From the NCBI RefSeq assembly GCF_045037415.1, contig NZ_CP173438.1: 64,000 nt of DNA; one strand, given 5' to 3'. The position numbers are program-made. The DNA is from Escherichia coli (lineage in GTDB: Bacteria > Pseudomonadota > Gammaproteobacteria > Enterobacterales > Enterobacteriaceae). Below are positions 41,602 to 44,600 of this stretch, in pieces. Position 1 is the first letter of the stretch. Each line of letters opens with the position of its first letter.

Positions 41602-44600
41602 GGAATGTTCATCTTGTGCTGCTGCACGGATGGGGACTGAATGCCGAAGTGTGGCGTTGCATTGACGAGGAACTTAGCTCGCATTTTACGCTGCACCTTG
41701 TTGACCTGCCCGGCTTCGGGCGTAGCCGGGGATTTGGTGCGCTATCACTTGCTGATATGGCCGAAGTCGTGCTGCGACAGGCACCAGATAAAGCCATTTG
41801 GTTAGGCTGGAGTCTGGGCGGGCTGGTGGCAAGCCAGATTGCGTTAACCCATCCCGAGCGTGTTCAGGCGCTGGTCACCGTGGCGTCGTCACCTTGTTTT
41901 AGTGCTCGCGACGAGTGGCCGGGGATAAAACCGGACGTGCTGGCGGGATTTCAGCAGCAACTCAGTGATGATTTTCAGCGTACAGTGGAGCGGTTCCTGG
42001 CGTTACAAACCATGGGTACTGAAACGGCGCGCCAGGATGCGCGGGCGTTGAAGAAAACCGTTCTGGCGTTACCGATGCCGGAGGTTGACGTACTCAATGG
42101 CGGACTGGAAATCCTGAAAACGGTCGATCTCCGTCAGCCGCTGCAAAACGTGCCCATGCCGTTTTTGCGATTGTATGGCTATCTCGACGGTCTGGTGCCG
42201 CGCAAAGTGGTGCCGATGCTGGATAAACTTTGGCCTCACAGCGAATCATATATCTTCGCCAAAGCGGCCCATGCGCCGTTTATTTCACATCCGGACGAGT
42301 TTTGTCACCTGCTGGTGGCGTTGAAGCAGAGGGTGTAGGTGGCTTTCGAAATGGCGGGACAGAACTTTACTGGCTCGCCGCAGCCAACTCTTCTTCTGAC
42401 ACCCCGGTAAAGCGCATGATGTCTGCAAGAGGGACTCCGGATTCAAGCATTATTTTTGCTATATGCAAGGCTTTGGATTGTTCCCCTTCCTGCCGCAATC
42501 TTTCCGCAATAGTCATTAAACTCTCCTTGTGTTTTGGTGAACGTTCGGCCACACCATCGATAAAATCGTTAAAACGTACCGCGTCGCCGGTTTGCAGTAT
42601 GTAATTAAACAGCCCTTTGATTTGTCTGTCATTTGCGTATCCACTACTTAATAAGCAGGCCATTTGCTCTACCAGTCCTATCAGATCGCGTTGACGAATA
42701 TGTTTTTGAATTAACTCCAGCAGCGCCATGCTCGCGTGCCGTCTCCGGTTGGCGTAAAAAGAGTTTGAACAGCGCATCGTGTGGGGTGGAACTCTGCTTT
42801 TTGCTCATGGCGTTCCTTCACCTGTTATTTGAATGCCGCGACTCTACGCGCCACTCCACACCTGTGCATTAGCGAGTTTTCATCCCAGCGAGACGCTTTC
42901 AGAGGAACTTACGTCGCGCTGCTATGGAAAGCCGCACGCAAAAAAGCCCGGATGCAAACGCATACCGGGCTTTCAAAACAGGCAGTGAAACAAGGTTAAC
43001 GCAACGCCCACCATTCGTGCAGACAGGCTTTTCCTTCCGGGCAGCTTTTACAACTGCCGGAAAGACAGCCGTCAGGTTCTTCCTGAATCCGCACTGCTTT
43101 TCCCATACTTTCTAGCTGTTTCAGCATGGCGTTAATCATTGGCTGCGGAGTGTTCAGTGTCTGGCTAATCTGGGCCGCTTCCATACGGCCCCGTAATGCC
43201 AGTAAATCACGCACTTGAATGAGCGAAGCCATTGTCGTGTCCTTAGTGGCAATCGCCAGTGGTACTGGCCGCACAGCAACTGCTTACCGATTTGCGCGTT
43301 GCCAGCAGTTCGATATCCACCCGGCTACGCGCGCGACGCAGCAAACCGATAACCACGATGTTAAACAGAATAACCGCCAGAATGCATACCAGGCTGTAGG
43401 TTGGATGCTGGCTGTAGCTGGCGATCTGATAGAACAATGTTGCCAGCGAGTAAGCGATATTCAGCCCCCACAGAATGGAGAAGCCCATCCAGCCACGGCT
43501 TGATTCACGGGCGATGGCTCCCATCACCGAGATACATGGTACATACAGCAGGACGAAAATCAGGTAGCTGTATGCGGCAGCTGCGCTACCGAATTTCTGA
43601 TCCATCACGCCCATCGCTCCGGTACCCATTTCGCCGTCGCCTTTGCTTGCTTCAATGGGGTTCATCAGTACGCTAAGGCTGAAGGTGTCTTTCAGGCTCT
43701 GCCAGGTTTCATCTACCGCACTGAACAGCTCTTCACCGAGGTTAAATTCCGCCGGATTGAACTCTTCGTCCTGAATATTTTCTGCGGTGTAGAGGGTGTT
43801 GAGCGTACCCACCACCACTTCTTTCGCCATGGCACCTGTAAACAGGCCAACCGTTGCCTGCCAGTTATCTTCATGTACGCCAATCGGCTTGAAGACCGGG
43901 GTGATCACCCGGCTGACGGAAGCCAGCGCCGAGTCGTTGATGTTATCGACGATTTTCCCGCTCAATGAGAAGCTGTTGAAGGCGCTCAGGAAAATGCTGA
44001 CGATGATAATCACTTTACCAGCACGCAGAACGAAGCCTTTCAGACGCTGCCAGGTCTGGATAATCAGGCTTTTAACGTGGGGTACATGGTAGACCGGCAG
44101 CTCCATGACAAACGGCGTCGCTTCACCGCGCATGATGGTGTACTTGAGCATCAGGCCAGTCAGCACCGCCATTACGATACCCAGCATATACAGCGAGAAG
44201 ACCGCCAGCGCACCGTTCTGCCCGAAGAAGGCAGCCGCGAATACTGCGAAGATAGCCAGACGCGCGCCGCAGGACATAAACGGTGCCATCATGATGGTCA
44301 TCAGACGTTCACGCGGTGCATCAAGCGTACGTGCGCCCATTACCGACGGTACGTTACAACCGAAACCAACGATCAGCGGTACAAAGGATTTCCCCGGCAA
44401 GCCCAGCGCCTGCATCAGACGGTCCATCACAAACGCCGCACGCGCCATATAGCCGGAGTCCTCAAGGAAGGAGAGGAACAGGTACATCATGCCGATCTGC
44501 GGCACCAGTGGCAGCACGGTGTTAATACCGCCGCCCAGGCCTTGGGCGAGGAAGATAGTCAGCCAGTCCGGGAAGTGGAGCGTGTAGCCAATCCACTGAA

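Follow-up and report, generated by a model that had tools for sequence, protein, structure and literature searches.

The rpnA pseudogene of Escherichia coli ST131 lacks the toxin nuclease core and keeps an intact reading frame for the nested antitoxin RpnAS

The rpnA (yhgA) gene in a 64,000-nucleotide stretch of Escherichia coli DNA (contig NZ_CP173438.1, assembly GCF_045037415.1; hereafter the window) has lost the 437 bp that encode its nuclease core and has kept, intact, the small antitoxin gene rpnAS that is nested in its 3' end. All five rpn genes of E. coli K-12 contain an internal translation start from which a small protein, RpnS, is made that neutralizes RpnL, the full-length nuclease, which is toxic (Zhong et al. 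2023, PMC10400941). A preliminary description of the window had stated that C-terminal domains of Rpn proteins are made as separate antagonists, in agreement with that study. The deletion is found throughout the sequence type 131 (ST131) lineage. We believe, with a probability of roughly 0.7, that ST131 rpnA is a pseudogene whose orphan RpnAS is probably expressed and no longer has a target.

The deletion was defined by alignment to rpnA of K-12 MG1655 (b3411). The remnant is between feoC and bioH, the same position as rpnA in K-12 (Table 1). The minus strand of 42367-42995 matches K-12 rpnA and its leader except for two gaps, one of 437 bp in the gene and one of 14 bp in the leader. The larger gap was placed to the base by comparison with K-12 and four other alleles. 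Its length is not a multiple of three, so the rpnA reading frame is broken after the native start. The junction (GGCACGCGA/GCATGG, with the slash marking the join) showed no convincing microhomology when compared with the flanks CGCGA/TTTTC and CCGAC/GTATGG. We also considered a hidden full-length rpnA that could be restored by correcting frameshifts, and rejected it because the 437 bp are physically missing. The preliminary description had proposed this alignment as a check; by it, the remaining reading frame is related to Rpn and no full-length yhgA is recoverable.

Table 1. Features of the rpnA region. Positions are those of the window, except where an extracted locus is named; a slash separates the bases on either side of a deletion.
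Feature	Position	Strand	Details
rpnA remnant, native start to native stop codon	42367-42808	-	Aligned to K-12 and to further E. coli alleles; NCBIfam NF007361 at both ends
Native rpnA start, 25 native codons and 2 nt	42732-42808	-	ATG 42808-42806, preceded by GAAGGA; K-12 alignment
Deletion junction	42731/42732	-	K-12 rpnA nt 78-514 (437 bp) gone; alignment columns 296-732
Leader deletion site, 14 bp (about AAAATGCAACCCTT)	42922/42923	-	Compared with SE15, K-12, B2.3 and JCM 5491
rpnAS, 49 codons and stop (MTIAERLRQEGEQSKALHIAKIMLESGVPLADIMRFTGVSEEELAAASQ)	42367-42516	-	ATG 42516-42514, corresponding to K-12 M244
rpnAS Shine-Dalgarno sequence, AAGGAG	42523-42528	-	RpnA codons K240-E241; 6 nt before the ATG
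Predicted sigma-70 promoter, ATGACA-17 nt-TTTAAT	42604-42632	-	Position-weight scan, score 11.8
Frameshifted open reading frame, 54 amino acids	42644-42808	-	25 RpnA residues, then out-of-frame residues; stop at 42644
Last 120 rpnA codons (K-12 M173-Q292)	42370-42729	-	Stop 42367-42369; Transposase_31 tail and variable C-terminal domain
136-codon open reading frame	42367-42777	-	From ATG 42777; first 16 codons are frame-shifted N-terminal DNA without Rpn homology
bioH	41568-42338	+	rpnA neighbor
feoC	42996-43232	-	rpnA neighbor
Nissle-type remnant, locus L006	680-1273		Extracted locus
Nissle-type remnants, loci L008-L013	766-1359		Extracted loci

The deletion removed the catalytic core of RpnA. 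Catalytic residues identified by mutagenesis are D11, D63, E82, Q84, and R94, together with the D165 PDDE motif (Kingston et al. 2017, PMC5350276). The deleted codons, 27-172, include D63, E82, Q84, R94, and the D165 motif, so that the PD-(D/E)XK core is removed, and D11 is the only one of these residues that is kept. Profile searches gave the same picture. In Pfam, the remnant matched only positions 161-202 (the last 42) of the 203-position Transposase_31 model. With the NCBIfam model for RpnA (NF007361, 292 positions), residues 13-136 of the 136-amino-acid reading frame matched model positions 169-292 (E 9e-77, 258 bits) and residues 1-29 of the 54-amino-acid reading frame matched model positions 1-29 (45 bits), both far below the full-length cutoff of 583 bits. 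The remnant therefore lacks the nuclease core by which an RpnL protein (PF04754 Transposase_31, TIGR01784, NF007361) is recognized. Because the PD-(D/E)XK core and the PDDE motif are gone, no RpnAL endonuclease is possible, and RpnA-based phage defense would have been lost with it. The K-12 alignment, NCBIfam, and Pfam all bear out the earlier claim that the N-terminal nuclease domain is absent and the C-terminal part kept. The accompanying statement that only about 120-136 C-terminal codons remain held for the last 120 codons, but the native ribosome-binding site, the native start, and the first 25 codons survive as well. The last 120 codons have 16 nucleotide differences from K-12, of which 14 are synonymous and two alter an amino acid (M189I and L282V), so that 118 of 120 residues are identical.

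The nested antitoxin gene was left untouched by the deletion; 215 bp separate the end of the deletion from the rpnAS ATG, which is downstream of it. In K-12, RpnAS has been detected by tagging and by ribosome profiling, and it was abolished by the changes K240R, E241D, and M244L in rpnA, which mutate its Shine-Dalgarno sequence and start codon (Zhong et al. 2023, PMC10400941). The AAGGAG-N6-ATG of the window is base-for-base the same as this mapped site. The encoded protein is identical at 48 of 49 positions, over its full length, to RpnA-S in PDB entry 7TH0 (L39V; E 7e-26), with no insertions or deletions and equally many repeats of four amino acids. Thus, by sequence, the remnant has the features of an RpnS gene: the mapped internal start with its Shine-Dalgarno sequence, and identity to the crystallized three-helix RpnAS dimer.

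A candidate promoter for rpnAS was also retained. The K-12 rpn genes have an internal transcription start, and the short transcript that arises from it exceeds the full-length mRNA in abundance (Zhong et al. 2023, PMC10400941). Our position-weight scan predicted a sigma-70 promoter inside the remnant (Table 1), and its score was the highest in all of K-12 rpnA and its leader; only two sites scored that high in 128 kb (both strands of the window). Transcription is predicted to start at approximately 42597, which is 81 nt ahead of the rpnAS ATG. The promoter-like site is the same in K-12 and is 100 bp inside the retained DNA. We suggest that it is the internal promoter, a prediction that comes from the weight matrix. 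A search of Rfam over 41500-43500 yielded only a sub-threshold chance match (22.5 bits, compared to a gathering score of 70).

A 40-bp probe spanning the junction, which cannot seed on an undeleted gene, had exact matches in 565 of the 5426 complete E. coli genomes. The genomes with the junction included SE15 and EC958, which we take to be distant clades of ST131. The window itself differs from the chromosome of an E. coli O25b:H4 strain (NZ_CP015085.1) at two positions in 50 kb. In the remaining genomes, the flanks matched as two pieces that are 437 bp further apart, indicative of a full-length gene, and the deleted segment itself was present in 4858 genomes and absent from 568. One exact match to the junction was on a record typed as a plasmid, an oddity of database labeling.

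The 14-bp gap in the leader arose separately. SE15 has the same 437-bp deletion and still has the 14 bp, and therefore the loss of the 14 bp is a later, second lesion within the ST131 lineage. Only 427 genomes matched the 701-bp locus at 99% identity or more, compared to the 565 with the junction, and the 14-bp loss probably explains most of this gap.

The allele has been annotated and, to that extent, is already known. RefSeq lists the remnant as a pseudogene that is "incomplete; missing N-terminus". An older RefSeq name was [quoted passage not shown]; the newer name is "Rpn/YhgA-type helix-turn-helix domain-containing protein", with the pseudogene flag kept. We rate the allele as known because hundreds of RefSeq genomes carry the pseudogene annotation and the nested antitoxin has been published for K-12. 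Our search of the literature on rpnA or yhgA in ST131 found no discussion of the allele, the sole mention being an unrelated variant call, "rpnA-H82Q", and a search for later work on orphan RpnS proteins found none.

A second, independent deletion generated a similar allele in other lineages. A frameshifting deletion in the N-terminal part of rpnA was present in 192 complete genomes, among which are those of Nissle 1917, "clone D i2", Seattle 1946, and strains of O2:H1 and O4:H5. Like the ST131 allele, this Nissle 1917/JCM 5491-type pseudogene is at the native locus, retains the C-terminal part, and carries the RefSeq remark "missing N-terminus". It differs from the ST131 allele in its junction, which has GATGCG microhomology and joins approximately codon 13 to approximately codon 100, leaving an annotated remnant of 594 bp. 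Together, the two deletions account for 757 of the 5426 genomes (14%). The 49-amino-acid RpnAS was identical in all nine deletion alleles that were sampled from the two events. The S regions of two Nissle-type alleles, O4:H5 and MS1737, have three substitutions, all of them synonymous. The signals for expression were less well preserved. In the Nissle type the predicted -35 is ATGGCA, which lowers the promoter score to 9.5 from 11.8, and AAGGAG has become AAGGTG in three of the seven sampled alleles (JCM 5491, Nissle 1917, and an O2:H1 strain). These changes look like erosion of expression signals rather than maintenance. Separately, we noticed that the Nissle-type deletion also occurs in animal isolates.

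The preliminary description had placed the start of the product at ATG 42729 or ATG 42777, and our check for ribosome-binding sites found no good signals at either position. ATG 42777 has no Shine-Dalgarno sequence (the upstream sequence is CCACCCCACACG) and is inside the reading frame of the native start, in another frame. Upstream of ATG 42729 there is only a GGAG, at a spacing of 13 nt. The frame is nonetheless open from 42777, and gene finders call the exact 136- and 120-amino-acid proteins, under names of the "transposase" or "Rpn family" type, on at least 1000 contigs each. The newer RefSeq name, with its helix-turn-helix domain, would also fit a real C-terminal-domain protein with a Transposase_31 tail, yet that entry is flagged as a pseudogene, and we found no experimental report of such a protein. 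We regard a genuine product of 120 or 136 amino acids as highly improbable. The documented product is the 49-amino-acid RpnAS that starts at 42516, and, judged from the sequence, the relevant unit is the 49-codon rpnAS rather than the 120- to 136-codon reading frame. The native start itself now leads into the 54-amino-acid frameshifted reading frame, which probably specifies a junk peptide; its exact sequence had no match in a collection of 15 billion proteins.

The preliminary description had also suggested that the C-terminal reading frame may have antitoxin activity, in trans, against other, intact Rpn paralogs. There is a basis for this suggestion: RpnS proteins are real antitoxins that bind via the shared C-terminal domain (PMC10400941), and other rpn genes are present in ST131. 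However, the published tests of cross-activity were negative. In two-plasmid assays RpnB was not blocked by RpnAS and RpnA was not blocked by RpnBS, and one added four-amino-acid repeat in either RpnCS or RpnCL ended neutralization unless it was present in both (Zhong et al. 2023, PMC10400941). We compared RpnAS from the window with the C-termini of the K-12 paralogs, with identities taken over local alignments. RpnB was identical at 22 of 52 positions (with a four-amino-acid insertion), RpnE at 20 of 52 (eight-amino-acid insertion), RpnD at 17 of 49 (no difference in length), and RpnC at 8 of 36, a short local alignment in which length is not comparable. The small protein YpaA was identical at 25 of 58 positions, with a 12-amino-acid insertion. 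The S domains of the K-12 paralogs are therefore 22-42% identical to RpnAS, and three of the four differ in insertions or in the length that can be aligned. RpnD, with an S region of the same length as RpnAS, is the exception, and the A/D pair is outside the published tests.

Searches of genomes and plasmids pointed in the same direction. With the 150-bp rpnAS as query, a distant-mode DNA search found a single place in each ST131 genome listed, with no second copy. A 365-bp query from the remnant found two further similar places in ST131 genomes, presumably the conserved Transposase_31 tail of paralogs. The search of plasmids found no close partner for RpnAS: the near-identical match (4.8 Mb) and both of the matches at 59% were on multi-megabase E. 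coli records that are labeled as plasmids and are evidently chromosomes. Rpn genes on genuine plasmids were at most 58% identical to RpnAS and were mainly from Klebsiella, Arsenophonus, and Pantoea. A cognate RpnL is thus missing from the cell, with RpnAL deleted in cis and only one rpnAS-like place in the sampled ST131 genomes, and each paralog has a nested antitoxin of its own. Given the published specificity, the divergence of the paralogs, and the single copy of rpnAS, we consider an action of the remnant on other Rpn proteins to be very improbable.

In the same searches, approximately 850 genomes had two places for rpnAS DNA. One is strain B2.3 (L005 414-1307 and downstream), which has a full-length rpnA of 297 amino acids with a strongly diverged S domain and 12 additional bases, equivalent to one more four-amino-acid unit. 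Other two-place genomes (H304-H310) have an unannotated partial copy of the K-12/ST131-type S region that corresponds to query nt 44-150 and is 89-92% identical. The arrangement in these genomes looks like replacement or duplication of an antitoxin-domain cassette.

The explanation we favor for the ST131 allele is decay in which the toxin was lost first. One frameshifting deletion of 437 bp, inherited across the ST131 lineage, destroyed the RpnA toxin and stopped upstream of rpnAS, sparing rpnAS with its probable internal promoter, its Shine-Dalgarno sequence, and its start codon. RpnAS, a small helical protein, would probably still be made and form dimers as in 7TH0, and it would have nothing to neutralize because there is no cognate RpnAL in the cell. 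In toxin-antitoxin loci, loss of the antitoxin first is harmful, whereas loss of the toxin first has no cost. Decay in this order would leave an orphan antitoxin that is most likely neutral.

Several observations weigh against this explanation. The additional 14-bp deletion in the leader may affect the native promoter and read-through transcription. The built-in strict consensus scan found no promoter-like sites in 42300-43050; it missed TTTAAT because it demands an A at the second position of the -10. A paralog with an RpnA-like S domain below approximately 65% DNA identity would have escaped the rpnAS DNA search. Lastly, the sameness of RpnAS in nine alleles could hint at selection; the lineages are too close, and recombination is too likely, for it to count.

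Some of these same observations favor a silent relic, in which the long remnant and rpnAS are both unexpressed in ST131 and the reading frame is intact only because the deletion is recent. The empty strict scan and the RefSeq pseudogene label fit such a relic, and no selection is required to keep a 150-bp reading frame intact in one clonal lineage. In addition, the older Nissle-type alleles, with their weakened -35 and, in a subset, AAGGTG, have the appearance of decaying signals. On the other hand, the promoter-like site, the Shine-Dalgarno sequence, and the ATG in ST131 are the same as those of K-12, in which RpnAS and an abundant internal transcript are documented, and 100 bp of retained DNA lie between the deletion and the predicted -35. 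We therefore think that a silent relic is unlikely. An orphan that is maintained by selection can be envisaged in two ways: rpnAS could be kept as an anti-addiction gene against RpnA-type toxins that come in through recombination, plasmids, or phages, or its transcript, converging on bioH, could be regulatory. Most other E. coli have a full-length rpnA with a nearly identical S domain, and both deletions (in 565 and 192 genomes) kept rpnAS with the same protein in nine of nine sampled alleles. rpnA and bioH are convergent, with stops 28 nt apart (42367 and 42338), and in K-12 they are among the convergent overlapping pairs ("excludons") of a 2025 RNA-seq survey (PMC12288877). However, two events are very few, the sampled diversity is low, and the older allele shows erosion of its expression signals. 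Moreover, decay with loss of the toxin first gives the same pattern without any benefit, because loss of the antitoxin before the toxin is counter-selected. We consider a selected orphan to be very unlikely. A broader version, in which loss of the RpnA nuclease with retention of RpnAS is a recurrent selected outcome in the extraintestinal-pathogenic phylogroup B2, reached in the ST131-type and the Nissle/ST73-type events and conferring immunity to incoming RpnA-type toxins or acting against a paralog such as RpnD, seems to us only slightly less doubtful.

The ST131 allele can be placed next to known Rpn genes. It has the position, the start and first 25 codons, and the rpnAS signals of K-12 rpnA (b3411; Zhong et al. 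2023 PNAS; Kingston et al. 2017; 7TH0), and it differs from that gene in that codons 27-172 are missing, the frame is broken, the toxin half is nonexistent, and the leader has the 14-bp deletion. The stand-alone RpnS proteins, ypaA (RpnESs) and DUF4351 (PF14261), are likewise small Rpn C-terminal proteins without a nuclease domain in their reading unit, and YpaA, which has three four-amino-acid units more than RpnAS, shares with it the N-terminal motif MTIAERLRQEG. Those genes are extra copies that directly follow an intact cognate rpn gene, in contrast to ST131, where the cognate long gene itself was destroyed. We found no Pfam match to DUF4351 in the open reading frame of the window, and its upstream neighbor is feoC, with no intact rpn gene adjacent. 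Orphan antitoxins are also left by decayed type II toxin-antitoxin loci, in which the toxin is the first to be inactivated and the antitoxin frame persists, as it does here. Unlike those loci, with their separate genes, the nested antitoxin shares the C-terminal codons of the toxin, and for this reason the toxin was lost by an upstream deletion.

The overall importance of these findings is limited. A working RpnA toxin and defense nuclease is missing from the pandemic ST131 lineage and, independently, from the Nissle 1917-type lineages. The remnant is a dead gene, and therefore the "transposase" and "Rpn family nuclease" calls made for it name a pseudogene. A nested antitoxin gene can persist after the toxin gene that hosts it is lost, and the result is a natural antitoxin-only genotype that could be used to study activity of RpnS that is independent of RpnL, and the specificity of RpnS in vivo.

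We made several additional observations in and around the locus. If there is a surviving rpnAS transcript, it would extend into the 3' end of bioH in the antisense direction. A strong hairpin with a T-run behind it (AGCCCGGTATGCGTTTGCATCCGGGCTTTTTT, 42940-42972 on the minus strand) is found immediately past feoC and is presumably the terminator of feoABC. This hairpin escaped the scan tool, probably because of its limit on loop length and the bulged stem.

Elsewhere in the window, three regions were noted. At approximately 29779-30565 (L007 33436-34222), next to malT, the RNA 3'-phosphate cyclase gene and the gene of its sigma-54 regulator are annotated as abutting truncated pseudogene fragments in the matching O25b:H4 genome, which suggests another internal deletion in this lineage, across the rtc locus. 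Between hslO and yhgE, at approximately 55335-56748 (L007 7253-8666), there is an InsQ/TnpB-family gene and a partial transposase fragment. Between glpD and glgP, at approximately 23086-26072 (L007 37929-40915), there are three genes without K-12 names, two hypothetical and one encoding a PstS-family binding protein.

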